From IMG/VR virus record IMGVR_UViG_3300009093_000034, positions 30,632-94,631 of that record: a stretch of 64,000 bases of DNA; one strand, given 5' to 3'. This stretch comes from a virus. The translations under genes and the position numbers were made by a program. Positions 2,152 to 63,854 of this stretch are shown piece by piece. The notes beneath the pieces are model-generated. The model was given only the letters and a program-made list of their open reading frames with translations. It had not been told where the DNA came from and did no database searches. Every line of letters begins with the position of its first letter. Positions within the stretch are counted from its first letter, which is position 1.

Positions 2152-3402
2152 ATGAGTTTCAACGTAAAAGAATTTAAGGAGCGCGCAAAGGCCGCTGCTC
2201 TTAAGGAAGCTGCTGCCGCTGGCAGAGCTCCAGCACAGGCTCCTGCTCCTGCAGCAAAGCCTACTAACGACAAGATCGCTTCTCTCAAAGAAAAGATCCA
2301 GACCAAGCTCGCTGAGAAGAAGGCTGCTCAAGCCGCTGCACCAGCAGGAGATGCTGATCGACAAGCTAGACTCAAGGCTTTCAAGGAAAACTTGATTACT
2401 AAGAGGAGAGCCGCTAAGCTCCAAGAGAATCGTGTTGCAAGAAACACCGCAGCCAAGGAAACCGGACGCAACCTCAAGGAAGAGACTCTTCTTCTTAAGA
2501 AGAGAGTTCAGAACTTGAAGAACTGGTTCAAGGAGAACGAAGGAGTTCTCGGAGCCGGTGTAGATCCTTACGCAGCAGGAACCATCCCAGGTCAAGCTGT
2601 TCCAGGTCTAGAACCTTCCATGGATCCTAACGCTCCAGCTCAACCTCCTGTTCAGCTTCCTCCAGAAGTCGTTGCAGAGATTCAGAGCATCGCAACCGCA
2701 GCAGAGTCTTTGGCTCAGCTCGCCGGTATCGAACCTGCTACCAACCTCGGTGCAGAACCTGGTTCTGATGTTCCAGCAACCACTGCAGATGGAGAAGGCG
2801 GAGCTCTTCCTCAGGCACAACCTGGTGTAAACCCTGTTCTTGAGTCCATCAGGAAGAGAAAGATCGACTCTATCAAGGAGAAGCTTGCTGCTCGTAAGGC
2901 AGAGAGCCTCGCTGAGAAGAAGACCACTGAAGATGACGAGATCGCCGCTCTTCAGGAAAAGGCTGCAAAGCGCAGAGCTGCTCTTCAAGAGCTTCGTGCT
3001 AAGGTCATGGCAGAGTCTTTCAATGATCAAGAAGCAACTGATGACCTCGTTCAGGCTCTTGAGATCAACCCTTCTTACCCTTACCCTACCGCTCCAAAGT
3101 ACACCGACCGCTCTGAAGTTCTTCCAACCGCAGGAACTAAGAGAGGCAACGAGACAGGTTCCTTTACCCCCGGTAAGAACACTCTCAAGCCTGGTCATGT
3201 CTGGAAGCCTGGCACCTTGAAGGTCTCTGGTTCTACCAAGGAACTTCAGATCCACAACCAATCCGCAGACGCTCCTGAGGGAACCGCTCTTCGTGAAGAT
3301 GGTCAGTTGGATCCTGAGAACTGGGCAGATCGCCACGTTCTTAAGATGACTGAGAGCAAGGTTGACTTCCAAGCTCTTCTTAAGAAGGGACTTCTCGGTT
3401 AA
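2152..3402 (+). CDS. Ala/Lys-rich coiled-coil protein, scaffold/core-like (head module)
   Basis: 416 aa of low complexity, Ala/Lys/Glu rich. A strong terminator hairpin lies downstream at 3425-3458. It sits upstream of the capsid gene cluster. Confidence 0.5.
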   Translation: MSFNVKEFKERAKAAALKEAAAAGRAPAQAPAPAAKPTNDKIASLKEKIQTKLAEKKAAQAAAPAGDADRQARLKAFKENLITKRRAAKLQENRVARNTAAKETGRNLKEETLLLKKRVQNLKNWFKENEGVLGAGVDPYAAGTIPGQAVPGLEPSMDPNAPAQPPVQLPPEVVAEIQSIATAAESLAQLAGIEPATNLGAEPGSDVPATTADGEGGALPQAQPGVNPVLESIRKRKIDSIKEKLAARKAESLAEKKTTEDDEIAALQEKAAKRRAALQELRAKVMAESFNDQEATDDLVQALEINPSYPYPTAPKYTDRSEVLPTAGTKRGNETGSFTPGKNTLKPGHVWKPGTLKVSGSTKELQIHNQSADAPEGTALREDGQLDPENWADRHVLKMTESKVDFQALLKKGLLG

Positions 3403-15472: not shown

Positions 15473-15901
15473 ATGAGATTCACTCAAGAATGGTTTAGAA
15501 ACTCACCACAAGAAGAAGTCAAGCTATTGAATGGTGAGGAAGTTTGGGTCTGCGATTACAGATTCACCTCATTAGGCAACAAGCCTATTCGAGTCATTGT
15601 TCCGACTCTTTGTATCATCCACGTCAGTTTTTACGTGGACAAGTACTATCCTAGAGGAAACCCGATTCCTGTTGTAGAACTCAAGATCAAGAAGAACGGA
15701 AAAGATCTTAAGGTAGAAGACAACACAACGGCCTACAACAACTGGCTGAAGATCTTTAACGATGAACAAGAGTGCAGAGCTTTCTTCAGAGAACAAATGA
15801 CCGAAAACCTTGATGACCTAGACGAGTGGGAAAAAGGTCAGATAGAAAGAGCTGCAGAACTCAGAGCTACAATGCACAAGCTCCTAAAGGAACACGGATG
15901 A
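15473..15901 (+). CDS. hypothetical protein
   Basis: 142 aa. A 140-nt noncoding region containing inverted repeats lies upstream. Confidence 0.45.
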   Translation: MRFTQEWFRNSPQEEVKLLNGEEVWVCDYRFTSLGNKPIRVIVPTLCIIHVSFYVDKYYPRGNPIPVVELKIKKNGKDLKVEDNTTAYNNWLKIFNDEQECRAFFREQMTENLDDLDEWEKGQIERAAELRATMHKLLKEHG

Positions 15902-16698
15902 GCAACAAATTTAAGAACGATTCACTTGGAACAAGGATGAAGGAGAACTATGAGAACAGATCAAAGATCTTTCTCCCTCGTAGAACCTACATCATCCTTC
16001 GTGTGGATGGCAAAGCTTTTCACACATACACGCGTGGTCTATTAAGGCCTTTCGACCAGGGTTTGGTCGAAGACATGGACGCTACGGCAATCTACCTTTG
16101 CAAGAACATCATGGGTGCTCAGTTCGCCTATGTACAGTCTGACGAGATCTCTATTCTTCTCACAGACTTTGACACCAACGAGACCCAATCTTGGTTTGAC
16201 AACAATGTCCAGAAGCTTGCCTCAGTCTCTGCTTCTATGGCAACCTCAGCTTTCAACAAGGCCAGGATTTCAAGGTTCATGGCTACTACGACAGCAGTTC
16301 CTCTCGAGGATGCTGTGGACAAATTGACTTGGGCAGAGTTTGACTCTCGTGCCTTCCAGATCCCTCAGAAAGTTGAAGTAGAGAACTACTTCATCTGGCG
16401 TCAGCAGGATGCTACAAGAAACGCCATCTCCAGTGCTGCTCAATCTGTCTACTCCCACAAAGAACTTGAGGGAAAGTCTGGAGATGAGAAGCAAGAGATG
16501 ATGTTTCAGAGAGGCATCAACTTCAACGACTATGATCCTAAGTACAAAAGAGGTCGTTTGATCGTTACAGAAACTTTTCCAAGTATCTCAGTTACATCAG
16601 GTGACATGGCAATTAGAACAAAATGGGTCTCCACGGCCGCTCCTATCTTCACTCAAGATAGAGATGATCTCTCTGATAGAATTCCAGAAAGTAGGTAA
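15898..16698 (+). CDS. Thg1-like protein (tRNA-His guanylyltransferase family, 3'-5' nucleotidyltransferase)
   Basis: YIILRVDGKAFHTYT and YVQSDEISILL match the Thg1 hallmark blocks RIDGRxFHRF and QSDEYSF. The ATG at 15898 overlaps the upstream stop. Confidence 0.7.
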   Translation: MSNKFKNDSLGTRMKENYENRSKIFLPRRTYIILRVDGKAFHTYTRGLLRPFDQGLVEDMDATAIYLCKNIMGAQFAYVQSDEISILLTDFDTNETQSWFDNNVQKLASVSASMATSAFNKARISRFMATTTAVPLEDAVDKLTWAEFDSRAFQIPQKVEVENYFIWRQQDATRNAISSAAQSVYSHKELEGKSGDEKQEMMFQRGINFNDYDPKYKRGRLIVTETFPSISVTSGDMAIRTKWVSTAAPIFTQDRDDLSDRIPESR

Positions 16699-23781: not shown

Positions 23782-24044
23782 GTGGTCCAGCTCCAAAGCA
23801 TGGACAACCTACCCACCATGAAGCTGTTCATCACGTTTATCTTACTGTAGAACAGATGGAGAAGATGACAACTCAACGTCTTCTAGCTTACTTCAAGAAA
23901 CACTTGATGCATGATCCATTCTATCCTTCCAGTGAAAAAGAAAAACATGACGAGTGGGAGATGGTTAGAGCTAAAGCTCAAAGTATACTATCAAGTAGAG
24001 AACATGTTCCTTCTAAGAGGGAACTCCAAAAGAGAAAGAAATGA
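23778..24044 (+). CDS. hypothetical protein
   Basis: 88 aa. Confidence 0.4.
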   Translation: MSGPAPKHGQPTHHEAVHHVYLTVEQMEKMTTQRLLAYFKKHLMHDPFYPSSEKEKHDEWEMVRAKAQSILSSREHVPSKRELQKRKK

Positions 24045-24463
24045 CACGATACGTTTTAGGTTTTCTTTTTGATGACGAAAAGAACACGGTCGTCTTGATC
24101 AAGAAAAACAAGCCTGTTTGGCAAAAAGGTCTCTTGAACGGTGTTGGTGGGAAGATCGAAGAAGGTGAACTTCCTATAGTCGCTATGGTAAGAGAGTTTG
24201 AAGAGGAAACGTCTGTGAAAACAGACAACCTTGATTGGAAGCACTTTGCTGGTGTTGAAGGCGAAGGTTACTCCATCGCTTGTTTCTACACCATCAGTTC
24301 TGACTACATGAAAAACGTCAAGACCATGGAAGAAGAAGTGATCGAGATTCGTAGGATTCGAGATCTTCAAGATCTTCCTATAGTCTCCAATCTTCTTTGG
24401 TTGGTTCACCTTGCAAAAGATGAAAACAATGGTAACCATCCTACTGTTCAAGTAAAGTACTAA
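24041..24463 (+). CDS. Nudix hydrolase
   Basis: GGKIEEGELPIVAMVREFEEETSV fits the Nudix box Gx5Ex7REUxEExGU almost perfectly. Confidence 0.65.
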   Translation: MTRYVLGFLFDDEKNTVVLIKKNKPVWQKGLLNGVGGKIEEGELPIVAMVREFEEETSVKTDNLDWKHFAGVEGEGYSIACFYTISSDYMKNVKTMEEEVIEIRRIRDLQDLPIVSNLLWLVHLAKDENNGNHPTVQVKY

Positions 24464-24491: not shown

Positions 24492-24959
24492 TTGTACATG
24501 AGAAGAACCTATAGAATAGAAAAGTCTTTAGATATTGAGGAGTTCATTAGAATAACTAATGAATCGTTAACCATGAAACAAGCTGCTGTGAAACTTGGTC
24601 TTCATTTTAATAGTTTCAGAAGAATAGCAGTAAAGTATGGAGTTTATCGACCTAATCGTGGAGGCAAAGGAACCCATAAGCATAAAGAAAATGGGACTAC
24701 ACCTCTTACTGAAATTTTGGAAGGAAACCATCCATCATATCAAACGTTTAGATTAAAACTTAGATTAATTTCAGAAGGAATTTTTATTCCAGAATGTTCT
24801 GAATGCAAAAATACTCAATGGAATAAAAAAGAAATTCCTTTAGAGTTAGATCACATAGATGGAAATTCTTCTAACCATCTTTTAGACAACTTACGATTGT
24901 TATGTCCAAATTGTCATGCACAAACTGAGACGTATAGAGGAAAAAACAAAAAGTTTTGA
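24492..24959 (+). CDS. HNH homing endonuclease with N-terminal HTH
   Basis: CSECKN...LDHIDGNSSNHLLDNLRLLCPNCH is an HNH motif. Its AT-rich codon usage is distinct from the flanks. Confidence 0.7.
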   Translation: MYMRRTYRIEKSLDIEEFIRITNESLTMKQAAVKLGLHFNSFRRIAVKYGVYRPNRGGKGTHKHKENGTTPLTEILEGNHPSYQTFRLKLRLISEGIFIPECSECKNTQWNKKEIPLELDHIDGNSSNHLLDNLRLLCPNCHAQTETYRGKNKKF

Positions 24960-24979: not shown

Positions 24980-25090
24980 GCGGGAGTGGAGAAATGGTGA
25001 GACTCAGCGGACTTATGAATGCATTCTAACTAGTGCATTGAATAAATCCGCTGCTTAAGAGGCGTGCCGGTTCGAGTCCGGTCTCCCGCA
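24980..25090 (+). tRNA. tRNA-like gene (111 nt) with long variable arm and apparent 28-nt insertion in the anticodon loop; candidate anticodon UAU
   Basis: 7-bp acceptor GCGGGAG/CTCCCGC with discriminator A. U8, A14, GG and A21 are present in the D-arm. The T-arm is GCCGG-TTCGAGT-CCGGT. The anticodon stem GCGGA/UCCGC encloses 35 nt instead of 7. The variable arm is GCTT-AAG-AGGC. Confidence 0.55.
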
Positions 25091-25138: not shown

Positions 25139-25591
25139 ATGAGTTATCTCACTGCTACTACTCAGGACATTCAGGACGTCGCTAAGACCCTGATTTATGC
25201 CACTGACAAGACCACGTCCCGCGACATTCTGGAGAAGATGCGCGCCGACAATTACTGGATCAACCAGACCGAGGTCGCTGCTGCGCTTCGTGATCTTCTG
25301 GCCACGGATCCTTCCTACGTTCGGACCTTTCAGCCCGATGCCTCGGTTCCTACCGGTGGCTACTTCATCTACGGCCTTGCGAGCGTGATCAAGACCACGG
25401 CCTCTGCCCCTGTCTACCCTGCGAAGGTGAAGAAGGTTCAGACTGTTGGTGACTACGAAGCTCGTGACAAGAACGATCCCAACTGGACCCTCGTTCGTTA
25501 CGACAACGTCACCGAGAACCAGGCCAAGCATCTCTTCTCCGAAGAGTACGGCGTCGCCTACACTGACGTTCGCGTCAAGAAGGCTGTCTAA
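25139..25591 (+). CDS. hypothetical protein (GC-rich island)
   Basis: 150 aa with a strong RBS AGAGGAGG. Its GC-rich codon usage differs from the phage backbone. Confidence 0.5.
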   Translation: MSYLTATTQDIQDVAKTLIYATDKTTSRDILEKMRADNYWINQTEVAAALRDLLATDPSYVRTFQPDASVPTGGYFIYGLASVIKTTASAPVYPAKVKKVQTVGDYEARDKNDPNWTLVRYDNVTENQAKHLFSEEYGVAYTDVRVKKAV

Positions 25592-25619: not shown

Positions 25620-25634
25620 TGAGATATTGTATAC
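25620..25634 (+). promoter_or_regulatory. conserved promoter-like motif TGAGATATTGTATAC (copy 5)
   Basis: No ORF follows it. A terminator lies 150 nt downstream. Confidence 0.5.
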
Positions 25635-25800
25635 GTAATGACCTAGAGCTTGAGCATAGGTTAAGCCAAACGGTAAAGTAAAGGCCGCCAAATAGCAAAA
25701 GGGAGGGTTTCTATCTTCTAAAGATCTAAACCACTATATTTTGTTTTTTTAATAGATTGTTTTTCGAAAAGGGAACCTGTTGGTTCCCTTTTCCTTTTTG
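25635..25800 (+). ncRNA. candidate small non-coding RNA (promoter-to-terminator unit without ORF)
   Basis: Bounded by motif copy 5 and the strong terminator at 25767-25800. The only ORF inside is ATG-ACC-TAG. Confidence 0.35.
25767..25800 (+). terminator. rho-independent terminator
   Basis: GGGAACC-TGTT-GGTTCCC hairpin followed by TTTTCCTTTTT. Confidence 0.8.
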
Positions 25801-25809
25801 TGAAGAGAA

Positions 25810-25824
25810 TGAGATATTGTAGAC
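25810..25824 (+). promoter_or_regulatory. conserved promoter-like motif TGAGATATTGTAGAC (copy 6) upstream of PARP-like gene
   Basis: 26 nt upstream of the ATG at 25850. Confidence 0.55.
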
Positions 25825-25849
25825 AACTTATAGTTCATGGAGACTACAG

Positions 25850-27061
25850 ATGGCCCGTATTGAAAAGCTGATCATGGTGACCGGTGAAGAGAATCACAAC
25901 AAGGTCTATGAGCTGATCGACAACGAGAACGGTACTTGTACCGCCAAGTGGGGTCGGGTTGGCGCTGCTCTTCAGGAGTGCAACTACCCCATCAGCGAGT
26001 TTGAAAAGAAGCTCAAGGAAAAGGTCAAGAAGGGCTATCGCGTGATCACCGATCTTCTGTCTGTCGAGAAAAGTGATGGTAAGACCACCACTACGGACGA
26101 CGAAGAGGTAAAGATCCAGAACATGTCCCGTGAGGCCATGGAGTTGATCAACTTCCTCCAGAGTTGTGCTAAGGGCATCGTCAAGCAGAACTACACCGTC
26201 AAAGTTGCCGACGTTACTCAGAAGCAGATCGACGCTGCTCAGGCCATCCTGGACGGACTGGTTGCTCTGTCCAACCAGAACTGGTCTCGTGAAGAGGCCA
26301 ACAAGATCCTTTTGGATCTTTACAACACCATCCCCCGGAAGATGAGCAACACCAAGAACTTCCTCATCCAGATCGACAACATCACGAAGAAGCGCCTTCA
26401 GGAGTTGATCTCCAGTGAAGCCGATCTTCTTGACGTTATGCGCGGTCAGGTTCAGACCACGAACGTTGCTCCCAAGTCTTCCACTGGCGAAGTCAAGTTG
26501 GATATTGAGATTCGTCTCGCTACTCCCGATGAGATCGATGAGATCTCCAAGAAGACTGACTTTGATGTTCGTAGTGCTGCAAGGATCTATCGGGTGGAGA
26601 ACACCAAGACCAAGAATCGCTACGAAAGTATCAACAAGCAGAATGAACAGCTTCTCTACCACGGTTCTCGCAGCCAGAACTGGTGGTCGATCATCAACGG
26701 CGGTTTGAAGATTCGTCCGACCAACGCCGTTCACACTGGCTCGATGTTCTCCGATGGTATCTACGCTGCTGACAAAGCTCAGAAGTCTCTCGGTTACACC
26801 GACGGTGGTTATTGGACTGGTAGCAGTGGTTCCTCGAAGAGGTTCCTCGGCATCTACAGTTTCAACCTCGGTCGTCAGTGGGATCTGTTCGCTGGTGGTC
26901 AGCGTCATGCCAGCTGGATGATGCAGCTCAACCTGAAGAAGATCAACGACAAGGGTTTTGACTCTCTGTTCGCTAAGGGTGGAGCAGATCTTCGCAACAA
27001 TGAGATGATCGTGTTCGAAGAGGCTCGCTGCACCATCAAGTATCTGATCGAGATGCGTTAA
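25850..27061 (+). CDS. PARP-like ADP-ribosyltransferase (WGR domain + helical domain + ART catalytic domain)
   Basis: The N-terminal WGRVG is a WGR motif. The C-terminal LYHGSRSQNWWSIINGG, GIYAADKAQKS and NEMIVFEEARCTIKYLIE blocks supply the H-Y-E triad of PARP catalytic domains. Confidence 0.75.
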   Translation: MARIEKLIMVTGEENHNKVYELIDNENGTCTAKWGRVGAALQECNYPISEFEKKLKEKVKKGYRVITDLLSVEKSDGKTTTTDDEEVKIQNMSREAMELINFLQSCAKGIVKQNYTVKVADVTQKQIDAAQAILDGLVALSNQNWSREEANKILLDLYNTIPRKMSNTKNFLIQIDNITKKRLQELISSEADLLDVMRGQVQTTNVAPKSSTGEVKLDIEIRLATPDEIDEISKKTDFDVRSAARIYRVENTKTKNRYESINKQNEQLLYHGSRSQNWWSIINGGLKIRPTNAVHTGSMFSDGIYAADKAQKSLGYTDGGYWTGSSGSSKRFLGIYSFNLGRQWDLFAGGQRHASWMMQLNLKKINDKGFDSLFAKGGADLRNNEMIVFEEARCTIKYLIEMR

Positions 27062-27063
27062 CC

Positions 27064-27300
27064 ATGTCAAAGTTTGAGATCTCCATCGAAGCTGGTCTCC
27101 TTATGAAAGGTCAGGTTAGACGTCTCCTTGAAAAAACCAAGAGAGATCTTCTTTGGAACAATCCTCAAGCTTACGTTGAGATCTACGAAGAATCATACTT
27201 TCTTGAATCTGAATTTACCTTCAGGGTCAAGAACATCAACGAAGTCGAACGTCTTGCTCTTCTGAAGTATTTTCAGAAGATCGACCAGGAGACCTTATGA
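27064..27300 (+). CDS. hypothetical protein
   Basis: 78 aa immediately downstream of the PARP-like gene. Confidence 0.4.
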   Translation: MSKFEISIEAGLLMKGQVRRLLEKTKRDLLWNNPQAYVEIYEESYFLESEFTFRVKNINEVERLALLKYFQKIDQETL

Positions 27301-29995: not shown

Positions 29996-30925
29996 ATGAG
30001 TGACGCAGTAGAAAAGAAAGAACCCACGTATGATGAGATCGTCAAAAGCGCTAAAGAGTACTTTGAAGAACTCAAAGCCAAGATCAAGGTCTCTAACGAT
30101 GAGCTTCTTGACCAGATCTCCACAAACTCAGCTCAGCTCTTTGCTCAGCTAGAGAGAACTGGACAGATTCAGGCCATGAAGAAACTTGTGGCTCACATTG
30201 CCTTGATTGAAAAGGAACACGAGATCATCAAGTCTGGGATCAACACCTTTGTGACCACAGATGAGATCAAAGAGTTCATTGACAAGGTTGATGGACGTGT
30301 GGTGAATCTCATTGAGCTGCATAAGTATGAGCGTGAGGTTCCTGAGAACGTGATCCAGAAGTACGAGAAGGTCAAACATCTTTTCACCACCTTCTTCGTT
30401 CTTTTCACTGACTACACAAAAGAACACGCCAAAAAGATCGCCAAGGAAAGAGATCCTATTCTCTTTGGTATGCTTCAAGACGCTGGAACCAAGGCCACGA
30501 CTCAGCGTATGTATGTGATCGGTGACTGGGAAGATGAGTATTGTGATCTTACTTTGGACCGACTTGTGTCCGAAGCCGCTGGTCTCTTTGACAGACCGAT
30601 CGCTATTCAGTTCAGAGATCCTTTGTCCCTTGACGAGATGAGAGCTAAGCTCAAGATGTTGGATGGAGAGTCCAAATCTGATAACTCTAGATGGGCAATG
30701 AACAATGTCGTGGTTACCGGAACCACTGCTTCCATGCAAAACATCTACGTTCCTGTAGTTCCATCAGAACAGGATTTTAAAGATAAGAGCATTCCTGATG
30801 AAGTTCAAGAAGTCGCAAAAGACGTTGTTGAAGAGGAAGAAACTCGAAGTCTTCTCACTAAAGATTCTGAGATTGACACCATGATTCTCCAAGAGACCAA
30901 GAAGCCTTGGTGGAAGTTCTGGTAA
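29996..30925 (+). CDS. hypothetical protein
   Basis: 309 aa. Confidence 0.5.
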   Translation: MSDAVEKKEPTYDEIVKSAKEYFEELKAKIKVSNDELLDQISTNSAQLFAQLERTGQIQAMKKLVAHIALIEKEHEIIKSGINTFVTTDEIKEFIDKVDGRVVNLIELHKYEREVPENVIQKYEKVKHLFTTFFVLFTDYTKEHAKKIAKERDPILFGMLQDAGTKATTQRMYVIGDWEDEYCDLTLDRLVSEAAGLFDRPIAIQFRDPLSLDEMRAKLKMLDGESKSDNSRWAMNNVVVTGTTASMQNIYVPVVPSEQDFKDKSIPDEVQEVAKDVVEEEETRSLLTKDSEIDTMILQETKKPWWKFW

Positions 30926-44815: not shown

Positions 44816-45591
44816 GCTCAGAACTTGCTAACCTCGCAGTCTATAACGCTGGCATGAAGAAGTCGATGATGGACAAGATGTTCTTCATCGACAAAGTCGA
44901 TGCCCATGTTTTCATCGACTATGGCTGTGCCGACGGAACTCTCATTCACTTTCTTCGAGGTCTCTTTCCTGAGTTCATCTACTATGGCTTTGACATCTCT
45001 GAAGACATGATCCAGGAAGCCAAGAAGAAGAACCCTGAGATCGCTCACAACTTCACCTCCGACTGGAGTTACATCTCTGACAGAATTCCTTCTCTTAGAG
45101 GAGAGGGAAAGATCTCTGTTCTCTTGTCCTCGATCATCCACGAGGTCTACAGCTACGGAACCGGAAACGATGTTGAGACTTTCTGGGATCGAATCTTCAA
45201 TGATGGTTTTGACTACATCGTTATCAGAGACATGATGCCCAGCACGAGTATGAACCGCCAGGCTGACATCAACGACGTAGCCAAGATCTACCGTAAGGCT
45301 GATAAAGAAAAGCTCTACGAGTTCCAGCAGACTTGGGGTTCTATCGAGAACAACAAGAGCATGATCCACTGGTTCCTCAAGTATCGTTACGACGACAACT
45401 GGGAACGTGAAGTCAAAGAGAACTATCTCCCTTTGAATCGGGAACAGTTCTTGAGCATGCTTCCAGACAACTACGACATCACCTTTCATGAGCACTTCAT
45501 TCTTCCTTACCTCCTCACTCAGGTTCAGAAAGACTTTGGAGTCGTGATCAAGGATAACACTCACTTGAAATTGATCTTAAGGAAAGCATGA
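44812..45591 (+). CDS. class I SAM-dependent methyltransferase
   Basis: VFIDYGCADGT is motif I. An acidic FDISEDM forms motif II. SSIIHEV forms motif IV. Confidence 0.6.
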   Translation: MSSELANLAVYNAGMKKSMMDKMFFIDKVDAHVFIDYGCADGTLIHFLRGLFPEFIYYGFDISEDMIQEAKKKNPEIAHNFTSDWSYISDRIPSLRGEGKISVLLSSIIHEVYSYGTGNDVETFWDRIFNDGFDYIVIRDMMPSTSMNRQADINDVAKIYRKADKEKLYEFQQTWGSIENNKSMIHWFLKYRYDDNWEREVKENYLPLNREQFLSMLPDNYDITFHEHFILPYLLTQVQKDFGVVIKDNTHLKLILRKA

Positions 45592-46142: not shown

Positions 46143-46574
46143 ATGGTTACAAGAAAAATTTGGCGTTTTGAAAACGAAAAAGGTGAAGGTCCTTATAACG
46201 GACACCCTAGTCCAAAATTTCTCTTTAAGTCTACTCATGACGGAGAGTCTAAGAAACATCCTCATCCCAAGTATGACTTTAAGAACTCTAAGATCATTAG
46301 ATTCTTAAACAACATGAACACTAAAGATCACTTTAGATGTGGATTTTCTACAAAGAAACAGGCATTTGAGTGGTTTACTGAACGAGAAAGAAAGATCTTG
46401 AAAAATAATGGCTACAATTTAGTCCGTAAAAATGCAGATAGAATCTTTAAAGGAAACAAACAAGTTATCTATATTCGTGAAGGTCATTTAGAAGAACTTG
46501 TTAAAGTTTTTCGTTTTGATCATTCTGTTCCAAAAACATTAACATCAATATATTCAATCAGGAGCTCAACATGA
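46143..46574 (+). CDS. hypothetical basic protein
   Basis: ATG at 46143 just after the upstream stop, in frame with the longer tracked ORF. Confidence 0.4.
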   Translation: MVTRKIWRFENEKGEGPYNGHPSPKFLFKSTHDGESKKHPHPKYDFKNSKIIRFLNNMNTKDHFRCGFSTKKQAFEWFTERERKILKNNGYNLVRKNADRIFKGNKQVIYIREGHLEELVKVFRFDHSVPKTLTSIYSIRSST

Positions 46575-47122
46575 TGCTACAGACCATTGAAGGAAACCTA
46601 ATCACTCTCGCCCTTGAAGGCAAGTTCGACATGATCGCTCATGGTTGTAACTGCTTCCATACCATGGGAGGAGGGATCGCCAAGTCTATTTCTGAGACTT
46701 TTCCTGAAGCTCTTCAAGCCGACAGGGTCTTTGGAGAAAGAGGAAACGTTTGGAAGCTTGGTCAGGCTTCCAAGGCTACGATCTTTCGTGGAGACACTCA
46801 GTTTGTTGTGGTGAACCTCTATACTCAGTTTGAGCCTGGAGCCAACTTTGAATACTTGGCCTTGATCAACTCTTTAGAGCATCTCAAGAAATACTTGGAT
46901 ATTCATCTCTACGATCGAGTGTCCGATAAACCTTACCGTCTTGGTTTTCCCAAGATCGGAGCTGGTATTGGTGGTGGAGATTGGGACCAGATCTACCAGA
47001 TCATTGACCAGTCTCTTGACGAGAAGTATCGTGAGGAACAGGGAGTCGAAATCACGGTTGTCGAGTTCATTCCTCCTAATCCTCTTCAGGAGATCGTTGT
47101 TCGTTCTCTTCAGAAGAAGTAA
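46571..47122 (+). CDS. macrodomain protein (Poa1-like ADP-ribose processing)
   Basis: MIAHGCNCFHTMGGGIAKSI matches the Poa1/macro signature iaHqcNc.g.MGaGIA. Confidence 0.6.
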   Translation: MMLQTIEGNLITLALEGKFDMIAHGCNCFHTMGGGIAKSISETFPEALQADRVFGERGNVWKLGQASKATIFRGDTQFVVVNLYTQFEPGANFEYLALINSLEHLKKYLDIHLYDRVSDKPYRLGFPKIGAGIGGGDWDQIYQIIDQSLDEKYREEQGVEITVVEFIPPNPLQEIVVRSLQKK

Positions 47123-52831: not shown

Positions 52832-54043
52832 ATGCCAAACACAGACAAAAATCACTCCACTCACATTGAAGACTCTGTCCTACAAGGTCCGAAGAAGATC
52901 CAAATGGCGATCCTCTTCTTTGAAGGTCTTCTCAACAACTCGTCTAGTCTAACCAAGAGTCTCAAGATCGACGGAGCTCCCGTTGTCTTGGCAGGTTCCA
53001 ACGCTGTTGGGATCACCAGGCCTTTTGTTGCAGCCAAGTCCTTCTTGAACAACGGTAAGGTCGCGACCAACGAGGATGAGATCCAAGAGCTCTTTGGAGA
53101 TCGTCCTGGTCTTGCTTCCAAGATGAAGAAGCTTCTTGAGCTCCTTCCAGAACTTCAGATCCCTGAAGGAGAGATTTGGAGAGGAGACTTGCTCTTCTCT
53201 AAAGACACTCTTCAAAACGAAGGTGGAAACAACTACTTCCACCCTAACACTCTTGTTTATGCTCCAAACTCCCAATCTGAGATTGATGCTGTCAATCAAG
53301 CAGACATCGGAATCATCTGGCACACCTACTACACAGGGGAGACACTTACGTCTCTCACAGCTCATGCCGATCTCGATGTCTACCGATTGAAACCTTCTAC
53401 ATCTGTTTTTACTCTGAGTCCTCTCTTCAAACAAGAAGAGCTCTCCATTGAGGAAACCTTCTTGATCAAGAGTACATTGGCAACAGTCAAGGAAAGATTC
53501 AGAGGTCTGATGGCTGGTTCTGTTGGAGCTACGTACGCCGAAGTTCTTAAGAACAAGGTGTTTCTTGAACACCTCACAACCTACCTCAATCACTTGATCA
53601 GACAAGGAAAAGGAATCTACCAGTTCTCTCCTACGGATCTTGCTTACAGCTGGATCCCTCAACGATATGAGCAAAAGATCGAAGGTCTTAAGACTGAGAA
53701 GTTCAAGACCAAGTGGAAGAACGAACGAGACTCCTACATCGATGCTGCTAGGTTCATTGAACCTGTCCTTGGTCAGATGATCTCCTTGATGAAAGCCCTT
53801 GTTCACGTCAAGGCTTTGTTCATCCAAAACTTCAACTCTTTGAAAGATCTTCCTTTCATGACCTTCTACAAAAAGAAGATCGATGATCGGGCTGTGTTGG
53901 TCAAGACTGCTCATGAAGGCTTTGTCATCACGGACAAGAAAGGAAACTCTTTTAAGCTTGTTGACCGAGAAGAGTTCACGAAGATCAACTTTGGAGTTGA
54001 TACTGTTCGCGGATGGAAGGAAGAGTCGAAACAAGTCCAATGA
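52832..54043 (+). CDS. putative nucleotidyltransferase/ligase-like protein
   Basis: LKIDGAPV is a KxDG motif-I-like block. The C-terminal HEGFVITDKKGNSFKLVD resembles ligase motifs IV/V. The assignment is tentative because the motif spacing is unusually long. Confidence 0.4.
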   Translation: MPNTDKNHSTHIEDSVLQGPKKIQMAILFFEGLLNNSSSLTKSLKIDGAPVVLAGSNAVGITRPFVAAKSFLNNGKVATNEDEIQELFGDRPGLASKMKKLLELLPELQIPEGEIWRGDLLFSKDTLQNEGGNNYFHPNTLVYAPNSQSEIDAVNQADIGIIWHTYYTGETLTSLTAHADLDVYRLKPSTSVFTLSPLFKQEELSIEETFLIKSTLATVKERFRGLMAGSVGATYAEVLKNKVFLEHLTTYLNHLIRQGKGIYQFSPTDLAYSWIPQRYEQKIEGLKTEKFKTKWKNERDSYIDAARFIEPVLGQMISLMKALVHVKALFIQNFNSLKDLPFMTFYKKKIDDRAVLVKTAHEGFVITDKKGNSFKLVDREEFTKINFGVDTVRGWKEESKQVQ

Positions 54044-56489: not shown

Positions 56490-57587
56490 ATGCAGAACCT
56501 TCTCGTCCTCAAGTTCATTCAGGAACATCCCAACGATTGGGAGCAGATCCTCTCTGCTGAGCCTTACCACATGTCAGTCAAGCACTACGATGGTAAGGAA
56601 CTCATCAACCAGAACTTGGTGATGCTCTCCTACAACCAGATCTTCTCCGACTTCCACAACCCGATCGTTCGTGAGTGCCGAGGTATCATCATCGACAAGG
56701 TCACCATGAAGGCTGTCTGTGTTCCGTTCTTCAAGTTCGGAAACCAGGGAGAGAGCTATGCTGACAAGATCGATTGGTCCACAGCTCATGTTCTCCAGAA
56801 GATCGATGGTTCTCTGATCAAGCTCTATTTCTACAATGGAACCTGGCGAATCGCCACCAATGGAACCATCAACGCTCTCGAGTGTGATCTTCCTTCGGAC
56901 CTTGGTCCTTCGAAGACCTTCGGTGAGTTGTTCTTGAACAACATCCCTGTGGACAGCTTCCTCGACATCGCCGACAAAGACTACACTTACATGTTTGAGA
57001 TCTGCTCTCCTTGGAACCGGGTGGTAACTCCCTGGCAGACCACCGAGATCTTCTTCTTGGGCATGCGTCACAACGAGACCCTTCAGGAAACTCTTCCTGA
57101 TGACCGGTTCATGCCGATCCTTCCTCCGAAGATGTATCCTCTGACCTCTTTGGCTGAGGTCGAAGCTGCTTCCAAAGAGCTTCCCTTCCAGGATGAAGGT
57201 TATGTCGTCGTTGACGCTGACTTCAAGCGTGTCAAGATCAAGGGTCCGGCTTACGTCAAGATCCACCATCTCCGTTCTGAAGGGCCCTTCACCATGAAGC
57301 GTGCCTTCGAGTTGGTTCAGGCCAATGAAGTTGGTGAGTTTCTTTCGTACTATCCCGAGTATACTAACGTTGTAGAAGGTGTTCGTTCCAAATTGGACGT
57401 CATCAAGGAAGCTCTGAAGGAACAGGAAACTCTTGTTTTCTCCCAGAACTTCCTTAGCCGAAAGGACTACGCTCTCTTTGTCAAGGACTTCCAGTACAAG
57501 TCTTACTTCTTCTCGAAGTTGGATGGCAAGGTGTCTGGCATCGACGAGTACGTTTCTAAACTCAAGTTCGATCAGGTTCAACTGTGA
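56490..57587 (+). CDS. RNA ligase 1 (T4 RnlA-like)
   Basis: VLQKIDGSLIKLYF is nucleotidyltransferase motif I KxDG(S/T). Its 365-aa length is comparable to T4 Rnl1. Confidence 0.7.
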   Translation: MQNLLVLKFIQEHPNDWEQILSAEPYHMSVKHYDGKELINQNLVMLSYNQIFSDFHNPIVRECRGIIIDKVTMKAVCVPFFKFGNQGESYADKIDWSTAHVLQKIDGSLIKLYFYNGTWRIATNGTINALECDLPSDLGPSKTFGELFLNNIPVDSFLDIADKDYTYMFEICSPWNRVVTPWQTTEIFFLGMRHNETLQETLPDDRFMPILPPKMYPLTSLAEVEAASKELPFQDEGYVVVDADFKRVKIKGPAYVKIHHLRSEGPFTMKRAFELVQANEVGEFLSYYPEYTNVVEGVRSKLDVIKEALKEQETLVFSQNFLSRKDYALFVKDFQYKSYFFSKLDGKVSGIDEYVSKLKFDQVQL

Positions 57588-58553: not shown

Positions 58554-58919
58554 ATAAAGGGAACTCTGTTTCAGCGTAACAACCGAAGTTAGCGCCGACA
58601 AAATGAGATGATGCGAAAGGCCTTGGGGAGCACAAGGTACCAACGAGTAGCTACCATCTCACGTACTGTCTCTCATGCCCCTGAGAGAACTTCCGTTTTA
58701 AGAAGCGACCACGAATTGCTTCCCAGGTTGCGGAAGAACAAATAGTTCCCGAGCAAAGTAGTGTAACGGTTTCGCACGACCAGTGTCTACTGGTTAGTTC
58801 TAGGATCATCCCCTAGACTTTGCTATTGCTCTTGAATTCCACGTAAAGGAGGTTAACCATTCACATGAATTCCAAGGACAACTTTCACACTTCACACATC
58901 ATAAGGTCTTCTCACGAAA

Positions 58920-61972: not shown

Positions 61973-62210
61973 TATTTTCCTTCTTTATCAAAAGTAATAT
62001 ATAGACTAATGTGCAAATTTACTCACCAATGCAAATAAGAAAAAGTTAATATGGATTCCTAGATTGTTCATTTTGAACAGTGTGTAAAATGAGCAGCATA
62101 TATAAGAATCTAACATAATAAGAATCTTAGTACTTAGGGTCAAACCCGGATCAACAAGAGGTTGATTGGAGTTCATGAAGTTTTTACTGGACCATGTTAT
62201 ACTTGTTTGT

Positions 62211-63854
62211 ATGGCAAAAGAACTCCGATACTCAAACGATTCCAGACAACGCATGTTCAAGGGAGTTGACAAGCTTGCAAAAGCTGTCATGACGACTCTT
62301 GGCCCAAGAGGACGAACAGTCATCATTCAAAAGACCTTCGGGTCTCCTTTGATCACAAAGGACGGTGTGACCGTCGCTAGAGAAATAGAACTTCCAGATC
62401 CTTATGAGAACCTAGGTGCTCAGTTGATCAAGGAAGCTGCGATCAGAACTAATGATCTCGCAGGAGACGGTACCACAACGGCAACAACGTTGGCCTACTC
62501 CTTGATCAATCAAGGTCTTAAGAAGATCTCCGAGGGTTTTGACCCGATTGAGATCAAGAAAGGAATGGAAGAAGCTACTCTTAGAGCTCAGAAACACCTT
62601 CAGTCTTTTAAGATGGATGTTCAGGATACCAAAGACATCAGGCATGTTGCAACCATCTCAGCCAACAACGATGCAGAACTTGGTGGCCTTCTGGCTGAAG
62701 CCTTTGATCACATTGGAAATGACGGAATTGTGACAGTAGAGGATTCTCCAAATCGACAGACCTTTGTCTCATATTCCGAAGGACTCGAGTATGATGAAGG
62801 ATACGCAACTCCGTTCATTATCAACGACCCTAGAGGAATTGTTACTTATCAGAACCCAAGGTTCTTGCTCATTGATAGTGAGCTGAACAGCTTTCACATC
62901 ATAGTCAAGATACTCGAGAAGTGGACGAGAGACGGTTGTAAGTATCCTTTCGTCATTGTTGCTACTGGGTTTTCTAACGAAGTTCTGACGACTATCGGTC
63001 AGAATGTTCAAGGTGGAAAAAGACCTATAGCTTGTTTCAAAGCTCCAGGTTTTGGAGAGAAGAAACAGGTTTACTTGAAGGACTTGGCTGCTGCTTTGGG
63101 AGCATCCATCTTTACACAACAAGAGGTTGGTCTTCAACTAGCTCAGTTCCAAGAAGAACACCTTGGAAAAGCTGGTTCCTTGAAGCTTACCTCAAACAGA
63201 ACAACCATCGTTGATCCTAAGGGAGACGGAGAGGCATTTGAAAAACATGTTCAAGAACTTAGAGAGATGGAAGCAGAGTCTACTTCAGGCTTTGAAAAAG
63301 AACTTCTCCAAGAGCGACTCGCTAAACTCGCTGGTGGAGTTGCTGTGGTTCACGTTGGTGCTTCAACCGAAGTTGAACTCAAGGAAAAGAAACACAGGGT
63401 TGAAGACGCTCTGAATGCAACTAGAGCTGCTCTAGAAGAAGGTATTGTCATCGGTGGAGGAAACACACTCCTTAGAGTGGCAAAGCTTCTTTCTCAAAAC
63501 ATCAAGAACCTTGGATCACCAGGTTTTATGGCTGGTTACAACGCAGTGGTAAGAGGTCTTAGAGAACCATTCTATCAGATCGCTTATAACGCTGGAAAGT
63601 CTCTAGAAGATATCGTCGAAGCCGTTCCAATCATTACCAAGACTGGAAGCACCAACATGGGTTGGAACGCTTTGACTGATACCTTTGGAGACCTATATGA
63701 AGAGGGAGTTATCGACCCCATCAAGGTCACTCGATATGCCTTAGAACACGCAGCTTCTGTTGCTGCTATCTTCATGGTGGTTGAGTGTGCTATCATCGAT
63801 CAAGGAAACATCCGTGTCGTACCTAATGGCTCGGAGTTAATGGGAGAATTCTAA
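62211..63854 (+). CDS. groEL: GroEL/Cpn60 chaperonin homolog
   Basis: From the internal ATG at 62211: MAKELRYSNDSRQRMFKGVDKLAKAVMTTLGPRGRTVII...ITKDGVTVAREIEL...NDLAGDGTTTATTLA matches the GroEL N-terminus and the ATP-binding DGTTTAT block. Confidence 0.85.
   Translation: MAKELRYSNDSRQRMFKGVDKLAKAVMTTLGPRGRTVIIQKTFGSPLITKDGVTVAREIELPDPYENLGAQLIKEAAIRTNDLAGDGTTTATTLAYSLINQGLKKISEGFDPIEIKKGMEEATLRAQKHLQSFKMDVQDTKDIRHVATISANNDAELGGLLAEAFDHIGNDGIVTVEDSPNRQTFVSYSEGLEYDEGYATPFIINDPRGIVTYQNPRFLLIDSELNSFHIIVKILEKWTRDGCKYPFVIVATGFSNEVLTTIGQNVQGGKRPIACFKAPGFGEKKQVYLKDLAAALGASIFTQQEVGLQLAQFQEEHLGKAGSLKLTSNRTTIVDPKGDGEAFEKHVQELREMEAESTSGFEKELLQERLAKLAGGVAVVHVGASTEVELKEKKHRVEDALNATRAALEEGIVIGGGNTLLRVAKLLSQNIKNLGSPGFMAGYNAVVRGLREPFYQIAYNAGKSLEDIVEAVPIITKTGSTNMGWNALTDTFGDLYEEGVIDPIKVTRYALEHAASVAAIFMVVECAIIDQGNIRVVPNGSELMGEF

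Follow-up and report, generated by a model that had tools for sequence, protein, structure and literature searches.

A PARP1-3-Type ADP-Ribosyltransferase with WGR, Helical and Catalytic Domains Encoded by a Large Tailed Phage

In this study, a PARP gene was analyzed in a 64,000-nucleotide (nt) stretch of viral DNA, positions 30,632 to 94,631 of IMG/VR record IMGVR_UViG_3300009093_000034, which is called the window below. The plus strand carries an ATG-initiated open reading frame (ORF) of 403 amino acids (aa) at 25850..27061. Its product is a PARP1-3-type ADP-ribosyltransferase with the WGR-helical-ART layout and the H-Y-E triad, where ART is the ADP-ribosyltransferase catalytic domain. The gene is a divergent member of a family already recognized in phages and bacteria. 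The original prediction, made from the letters of the DNA, was of a phage PARP-like WGR-helical-ART enzyme with a PARP2/3-like core, and Pfam, PHROG, PDB, AlphaFold2 (AF2) and residue alignment all agreed with it. We consider it likely (probability about 0.7) that the gene encodes a functional NAD+-dependent ADP-ribosyltransferase, a minimal form of the "DNA-dependent" PARP1-3 clade, which would be activated by DNA and act at DNA intermediates or ends.

Identification of the Phage PARP

The PARP gene and its domains were located as follows.

25850..27061 (+): PARP gene, 403 aa plus stop, with WGR, helical domain and ART (ORF, Pfam, PHROG, PDB, AF2, Foldseek)
25850..26047 (+): WGR domain, aa 1-66, four beta strands and one helix (Pfam sub-threshold, PDB, profile, conservation)
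26129..26467 (+): helical (PARP_reg/HD-like) domain, aa 94-206, five main helices (DSSP on the model, HMMER alignments)
26504..27058 (+): ART catalytic domain, aa 219-403 (alignment to PARP1, conservation)
26660-26662, 26762-26764, 27002-27004 (+): catalytic triad codons for H271, Y305 and E385 (PARP1 alignment)

The hidden Markov model (HMM) search, the structure comparison and the DarT comparison suggested with the original prediction were carried out. The 403-aa protein matched Pfam PARP (PF00644) with 79 bits against a cut-off of 26.7 (E 4.5e-22). PHROG 23333, annotated as "polymerase", was matched at E 6.9e-49 by residues 11-403, covering profile positions 12-383 of 383. When the single sequence was compared with PDB, residues 58-317, from the helical domain into the ART, aligned with PARP1 chains at E 5.5e-14. 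The HMMER alignments to the PARP1 helical domain spanned query residues 96-240, and a separate short match paired NNEMIVF with YNEYIVY of PARP1. A family profile of 46 homologues matched PARP1 catalytic fragments at 1e-30 and PARP2 at 5e-30, the latter in one contiguous stretch (profile positions 13-344) from WGR through ART. For the first 80 residues alone, the top PDB match was the PARP3 WGR domain 2eoc (E 0.016), and this alignment paired NxNKxY, WGRVG and FEKK..EK.K of the phage protein. A precomputed WGR match was carried by many metagenomic homologues. Judged from these sequence comparisons, the PARP family matches are far beyond chance.

The WGR domain showed the motifs NxNKxY (aa 15-20), WGRVG (34-38) and KKGY (60-63), and the triad lies in LLYHGS (H271), GIYAAD (Y305) and NNEMIVF (E385). 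The N-terminal WGRVG and the HGS...Y...E arrangement of the 403-aa product were thus found where they had been claimed. H271, Y305 and E385 were invariant in the 46 homologues and aligned with H862, Y896 and E988 of PARP1. The NAD-pocket residues G272, K312, S313 and Y316, equivalent to PARP1 G863, K903, S904 and Y907, were likewise invariant, as were N15, N17, K18, Y20, G35, R36 and K58 of the WGR domain.

The three-dimensional structure was modeled by AF2 on the 46-sequence alignment, with a mean predicted local distance difference test (pLDDT) of 87 and a predicted template modeling score (pTM) of 0.83. The DSSP assignment of the model gave a beta-rich WGR domain at aa 1-66, helices at aa 94-206 and the ART at aa 219-403. 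A helical segment had been predicted at about 150 aa; the domain is present and measures about 115 aa, with five main helices and one of four residues. The top Foldseek match was 4dqy_C, PARP1 WGR+CAT on a DNA double-strand break, with a query TM-score (TMq) of 0.70, and PARP2 in the PARP2/HPF1/nucleosome complex was also matched. In BFVD, the top match was a 415-aa phage "NAD(+) ADP-ribosyltransferase" (TM 0.84, 33% identity).

Other families of the fold were considered. Tpt1/KptA RNA 2'-phosphotransferase was rejected, with 18.7 bits against a cut-off of 26 in Pfam and 20.2 against 231 in NCBIfam, reflecting generic H-Y-E similarity. The PARP protein matched no PADLOC model, DarT included, nor any anti-defense profile, and membership in a defense system was rejected; the DarG-like macrodomain of the window lies 19.5 kb away. 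Since the PARP catalytic profile was matched, the predicted fold superposed on PARP1 and PARP2 and the triad aligned with that of PARP1, the protein was identified as a PARP with a WGR-helical-ART core.

By homology to PARP1-3 and HaPARP, we infer the enzymatic activity, DNA activation, targets and biological role of the window PARP as follows. The WGR domain would bind a DNA discontinuity, that is, a nick or a 5'-phosphorylated end. This contact would loosen the helical domain that blocks the NAD+ pocket, and the H271/Y305/E385 site could then move ADP-ribose from NAD+ onto the enzyme itself, nearby proteins or DNA ends. The product may be single ADP-ribose units or chains. The gene would be transcribed from its own promoter-like element inside a block of small non-structural genes. 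During infection, its most likely sites of action would be DNA ends or the intermediates of replication, recombination or repair, and the enzyme may cooperate with the adjacent winged-helix protein.

Genome and Gene Call

Head-/tail-like genes, a family-A DNA polymerase, GroEL, Thg1 and a T4 Rnl1-type RNA ligase were present in the window, and the genome is therefore that of a jumbo-sized tailed phage (~306 kb). The ENA contig k141_4393686 (305,853 bp) is from the same genome, and the full 403-aa PARP is called on it. A split PARP gene was rejected; the 239-aa public protein P0001, 100% identical, is merely an internal-start call from M165.

An antisense ORF of 408 aa (25844..27070, minus strand) overlaps PARP fully and is codon-aligned with it. 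It was rejected as a true gene, the homology being entirely on the plus strand. This frame is open because the sense PARP gene contains no TTA, CTA or TCA codon against 12.6 expected from the other genes of the window (P ~3e-6). The truncated call P0001 probably arose from the antisense ORF combined with the strong internal start codon at M165. Long antisense ORFs at 25844-27070, 56574-57581, 52949-54040 and 44818-45564 (all minus strand) sit exactly opposite genes that avoid A-ending codons, and these four are codon-bias artefacts.

Genes Recurrent near Phage PARPs

The neighborhood of phage PARPs was surveyed by clustering the ORFs within 10 kb of PARP at 85 loci, which gave 53 groups after PARPs more than 90% identical were merged. 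The features that recurred, with those of the window, are listed below.

25139..25591 (+): winged-helix protein, 150 aa, of an uncharacterized family; avoids A-ending codons like PARP and co-localizes with PARP
L004:9236-9673, L168:10001-10510, L169:3890-4375, L010:9392-9988: winged-helix family members at other PARP loci
L037:9527-9961, L079:9557-9964, L074:9554-9988 and 14 other dereplicated loci: macrodomains within 1.5 kb upstream of PARP, most of them abutting it
46571..47122 (+): protein of 183 aa with a DarG/Poa1p-type macrodomain, 19.5 kb away from PARP
L005:5054-5884, L169:4418-6121, L168:1-1003 and 2185-3216: NAD synthase (NadE) or cytidylyltransferase-like (possibly NMNAT) genes near PARP

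Two possible partnerships were raised by the survey: the PARP-associated winged-helix family and the abutting macrodomain of sister phages. The winged-helix family (cluster 7) occurred within 1.5 kb of PARP, on either side, in 8 of 53 groups. It comprises 39 proteins, all "hypothetical"; no Pfam domain or other annotation was found for them, and the product of 25139..25591 matched nothing in PADLOC. When the search was started from this family, all four independent context look-ups gave a PARP within 10 kb, and with the contigs seen before included, the same was true on all eight long contigs examined, where the two genes were often adjacent. The gap between them was 19 nt in one phage; in another, the order was PARP, a 91-aa gene, the winged-helix gene and NAD synthase.

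Members of the family have about 150-200 aa, with an N-terminal winged helix and an acidic/disordered linker; the C-terminal domain is small and conserved and bears the motif T..QAR..Y....Y.DVR. The N-terminal 87 residues of 25139..25591 were modeled confidently as a winged helix. Foldseek matched it with PadR, TFIIE, Pex and Fur (E 0.0095 or weaker), and the family profile matched the ArgR N-domain at E 0.03. Mention of a PARP link of this family was not found in the passages on phage PARPs in the literature consulted. PARP and the adjacent winged-helix protein could tentatively be regarded as an undescribed two-gene phage module, in which the latter would guide PARP to DNA, regulate it or be its dedicated acceptor, although we hold this to be doubtful. 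If it is true, the module would take the place that the PARP-macrodomain writer-eraser operon has in other phages; with phage NAD synthase and ligases, large phages would then have their own ADP-ribose signaling at DNA or RNA ends.

A macrodomain of about 145 aa (cluster 1) was found within 1.5 kb upstream of PARP in 17 of 53 groups, most directly abutting it with a gap of 6-49 nt. Pfam Macro was matched by 11 of the 12 members, and the consensus, HCISGD..GAGIA ... K ... IGCG.DGLDW, is of the TARG1/DarG type. This arrangement implies a writer-eraser operon in the sister phages. In its passages on phage macrodomains outside toxin-antitoxin systems, Iyer et al. 2022 (PMC9503650) stated that direct evidence of macromolecular deconjugation is lacking. 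The macrodomain and winged-helix clusters were also considered as one family, which was rejected at an hhalign probability of 0.2%.

The macrodomain protein of the window, 46571..47122, matched Pfam Macro weakly, NCBIfam DarG at 8e-6, PADLOC DarG at 2.6e-7 and the PDB entries 6lfu and 5m31. It is closest to Poa1p and to the macrodomains of the DarG structures 5m31 and 5m3i. Compared with the PARP-adjacent macrodomains, it gave an hhalign probability of 94%. From its sequence it is a possible ADP-ribose eraser for PARP; it may equally well serve RNA repair or anti-DarT defense.

In 13 of 53 groups, an ATP-dependent DNA ligase was encoded within 10 kb of PARP (median distance, 2 kb); an RNA ligase was seen at this range in 10 of 53. 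When the recurrent PARP neighbors (DNA ligase, RNA ligase and others) were sought in the window, the distant macrodomain alone turned up. The NadE and cytidylyltransferase-like genes, a few kb away in several related phages, hint that NAD supply is linked with PARP.

Promoter Motif, Terminator and Flanking Elements

The elements around the PARP gene were as follows.

25811..25821 (+): promoter-like motif (T)GAGATATTGTA, 28 nt 5' of the PARP ATG, an exact repeat in the window
25766..25793 (+): strong hairpin of the intrinsic-terminator type (12 bp, then a T-run), separating PARP from upstream transcription
12400, 17268, 24958, 25621, 25811, 44106, 56258 (+): copies of the motif (T)TGAGATATTGTAG, intergenic
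25621..25802 (+): promoter-motif copy and ~170 nt non-coding to the terminator, between the winged-helix gene and PARP (motif, folding)
24980-25090 (+): tRNA gene (local Rfam RF00005, 42 bits against a 29-bit cut-off)
24492..24959 (+): HNH homing endonuclease (Pfam HNH; PADLOC HEase 3e-18)
24041..24463 (+): generic MutT-like NUDIX protein, upstream of the HNH gene

The leader of PARP consists of TGAGATATTGTA at 25810-25821 and the ribosome-binding site GGAGA at 25839-25843, followed by the ATG. The exact 11-mer motif occurred five times in the window against 0.03 expected, always on the plus strand and intergenic, and the copy at 25811-25821 bears out the suggestion that PARP has its own promoter motif. 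The core GAGATATT occurred in seven copies, again on the plus strand and intergenic in every case. In six of the seven motif copies, a start codon or RNA gene follows 6-28 nt downstream. The motif is similar to an extended -10 element (TGnGATATT) and has no -35. From its sequence and placement, it probably represents an extended -10 type of promoter peculiar to this phage.

The 170-nt spacer upstream of PARP folded with a z-score of -3.06 and contained no plausible ORF, and no Rfam family was matched by it. By its motif copy and folding, 25621..25802 is a candidate small-RNA gene. The tRNA gene at 24980-25090 has a long variable arm, and a hairpin of 31 nt is inserted into its anticodon loop; the variant motif copy at 24958 lies 22 nt 5' of it. 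It was missed by ARAGORN and by the filtered whole-window Rfam scan. Candidate readings are a tRNA with a mini-intron, perhaps Leu-UAA, and a decoy that resembles a tRNA. At 58752-58825 (+), ARAGORN reported a "tRNA-???" with a two-base anticodon, and Rfam at the gathering threshold gave no confirmation.

An HNH endonuclease had been noted nearby; it lies about 1 kb upstream of PARP and matches both Pfam HNH and the PADLOC homing-endonuclease profile. The NUDIX gene was rejected as a specific ADP-ribose pyrophosphatase, its matches being generic MutT-like and sub-threshold. The 78-aa gene downstream of PARP (27064..27300) had no homologue in the loci L002-L005. The window also carries an RNA-repair and chaperone set, composed of a Thg1-like tRNA-His guanylyltransferase, DUF6267, the T4 Rnl1-type RNA ligase and a GroEL-type chaperonin (15826-16698, 52832-54043, 56490-57587 and 62166-63854).

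Proposed Function and Alternatives

Several observations weigh against a DNA-activated PARP of the PARP1-3 clade. Pfam WGR was matched with 17.9 bits against a 22-bit cut-off, and Pfam PARP_reg gave no report on the protein at E up to 1; because of this, the WGR and helical domain calls rest on profile and structure evidence. PARP1 Y986, two residues before the catalytic Glu, is Asn in the phage PARP. Human PARP3 and PARP4 have the H-Y-E triad yet are mono-transferases, and the triad is no guarantee of a polymer. No eraser is adjacent to PARP in the window, whose only macrodomain is the distant one. That protein has Gln where the PARP-adjacent macrodomains have the invariant Lys, a position which we take to be the catalytic Lys of TARG1/DarG. 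A DNA ligase of the PARP-associated family was not found in the 64-kb window, and no biochemical or genetic experiment on a phage PARP turned up in the literature searched.

Host takeover is an unlikely alternative. The enzyme would ADP-ribosylate host RNA polymerase or translation factors in the manner of T4 Alt/ModA/ModB, possibly with chains, and the WGR domain would be a general nucleic-acid tether. Such a role was put forward for jumbo-phage PARPs by Iyer et al. 2021 (PMC7824862), and ARTs are described as common host-manipulation tools of phages in PMC9503650. PARP lies in a block of small non-structural genes and has a promoter copy of its own, which is consistent with this role. However, the full WGR-HD-ART array (HD, helical domain) with conserved DNA-contact residues is a DNA-activated design, unlike the R-S-E enzymes Alt and Mod, and the recurrent neighbors are ligases, NAD synthase and a DNA-binding-type protein rather than head or packaging genes.

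Slightly less likely again is end capping or counter-defense, in which phosphorylated DNA or RNA termini would be ADP-ribosylated, as PARP2/3 are able to do in vitro; this would protect the ends of the phage genome or intermediates of its replication against host nucleases, or mark ends for phage ligases. DNA ends are modified by PARP1-3, as described in the abstracts of PMC5843604 and PMC8385414. The ligases found within 10 kb of PARP in the survey, the RNA-repair genes of the window phage and the TARG1/DarG type of the abutting macrodomains, a class that includes a DNA de-ADP-ribosylase, point in the same direction. This support is purely contextual, however; the ligase linkage is loose and absent from the window, and the PADLOC and anti-defense profiles were not matched by PARP.

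Codon Composition and Origin

The G+C content at third codon positions (GC3) of PARP was 0.676 against a window mean of 0.456 (standard deviation 0.10), the second highest of 59 genes. The highest was that of the winged-helix gene 25139..25591, at 0.689, and three further genes besides PARP exceeded 0.63. The GC-rich codons reported earlier were thus present, and the bias is more precisely an avoidance of A-ending codons, which made up 5% in PARP, 2% in 25139..25591 and 23% elsewhere. This style is common to ~8-10 scattered window genes, including the RNA ligase and DUF6267, and in PARP it exaggerates the genome-wide preferences (AAG, ATC, AAC, ACC). At 52 dereplicated phage loci, the GC3 of PARP ranged from 0.11 to 0.71 and tracked the local genome, with a median z of +0.49 against about +2 in the window. 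The codon bias of PARP is more suggestive of a class of codon usage linked to expression than of a foreign island.

The GC3 of the HNH gene, 0.212, was the lowest of the window. Its bias is opposite to that of PARP; therefore it seems independent of PARP and not part of a PARP cassette, and it is probably an independently mobile element. No close relative of the window phage was found in IMG/VR. A flanking 309-aa gene had relatives of at most 47% identity, with neither shared synteny nor PARP, and no synteny of the flanks with the nearest PARP-bearing contigs was seen.

Recent horizontal acquisition had been inferred from the codons, the promoter motif copy and the HNH gene, and this inference is weak: composition alone speaks for it, while the codon style is shared, PARP GC3 tracks resident genomes and the HNH bias is opposite. 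That PARP is a passenger recently gained from a bacterial or eukaryotic source, doing little or nothing for the phage, is very improbable and the least supported alternative, since beside the high GC3, the homing endonuclease 1 kb upstream and the non-syntenic flanks stand intact catalytic residues, homologues of uniform length in large-phage-like contexts (see below) and a codon style that other genes share, the linked winged-helix gene among them.

Distribution of Phage PARPs

Homologues were present in 16 of 50,697 GenBank phage records, with 23-36% identity. Among the carriers are Cellulophaga phages phi4:1 and phi17:2, Xanthomonas phages XacN1 and Xoo-sp13 and Klebsiella phage FBKp34, in which most of the homologues are annotated "poly(ADP-ribose) polymerase". 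No near-identical phage was found by GenBank megablast. In metagenomes, 2,483 proteins were homologous at E ≤1e-5, the closest among the matches listed being 53-58% identical. The 120 homologues listed were all of about 400 aa with 39-58% identity, one of them being the truncated call of the same gene. In IMG/VR, PARP was present on at least 270 viral contigs, many of 100-500 kb, and every homologue context examined resembled a large phage. Rarity in bacteriophages, as first supposed, is correct by frequency among GenBank records; the family is nevertheless populous and was already described.

Perina et al. 2014 reported PARPs with conserved H-Y-E in Aeromonas phage Aeh1 and Cellulophaga phage phi4:1 (PMC4245714), and Iyer et al. 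2021 noted jumbo-phage PARPs, citing the XacN1 protein (PMC7824862). Iyer et al. 2022 placed PART/PARP among the commonest viral ART families and derived one eukaryotic-virus PARP from a phage copy (PMC9503650). A 2024 gut jumbo phage study listed PARP among phage NAD-dependent enzymes (PMC11662467).

PARP signaling is usually seen as a eukaryotic DNA-damage system; a complete WGR-helical-ART sensor-enzyme circulates widely in large phages. New here is a divergent PARP, at most 58% identical to database proteins among the matches listed, with its catalytic and DNA-contact residues intact. The window PARP alone leaves existing knowledge unchanged. The residual interest lies in the winged-helix family tightly linked to PARP, in the abutting macrodomain of sister phages and in phage PARPs being experimentally unprobed in the literature found.

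Comparison with Known Systems

HaPARP of Herpetosiphon aurantiacus and CdPARP of Clostridioides difficile CD160 have, like the phage PARP, WGR, helical and PARP_cat domains with H-Y-E, and all lack zinc fingers and BRCT. The WGR patches N34-Y39, Y57-G61 and K88-Y93 of CdPARP correspond to N15-Y20, W34-G38 and K58-Y63 of the phage PARP. The phage PARP is encoded on a ~306-kb phage genome, whereas theirs are on bacterial chromosomes, and its WGR motif stands in place of the YGR of most bacterial PARPs. According to PMC5966428 and PMC8120803, poly(ADP-ribose) was made in vitro by HaPARP and CdPARP, and HaPARP required DNA. The helical domain of bacterial PARPs is commonly missed by Pfam PARP_reg, as stated in PMC5966428.

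The domain order and fold are common to the phage PARP and the human PARP1 core, PARP2 and PARP3 (7aeo, 6x0l, 2eoc, 4dqy), and all of them share the residues H, G, Y, K, S, Y and E of the NAD pocket. The phage PARP differs from the human enzymes in having ~20% identity to them, in lacking N-terminal tails, zinc fingers and BRCT, and in a family-specific insertion after Y316 (TDGGYWTGSSGSSKR). We know of no HPF1-like partner for the phage PARP.

The annotated phage PARPs (phi4:1, phi17:2, XacN1 BBA65562.1, Xoo-sp13, vB_KpM_FBKp34; PHROG 23333; A0A8D9PE85) are of the same family and length and also come from large phages. They differ from the window PARP in sequence (23-36% identity); the window PARP has a winged-helix neighbor and no synteny with them.

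DarT and T4 Alt/ModA/ModB are, like PARP, NAD+-dependent ADP-ribosyltransferases of phage-host conflict. Alt and Mod belong to the R-S-E clade, in contrast to the H-Y-E of the window PARP. Neither DarT nor Alt/Mod has a WGR domain or a helical regulatory domain, whereas the window PARP has both.

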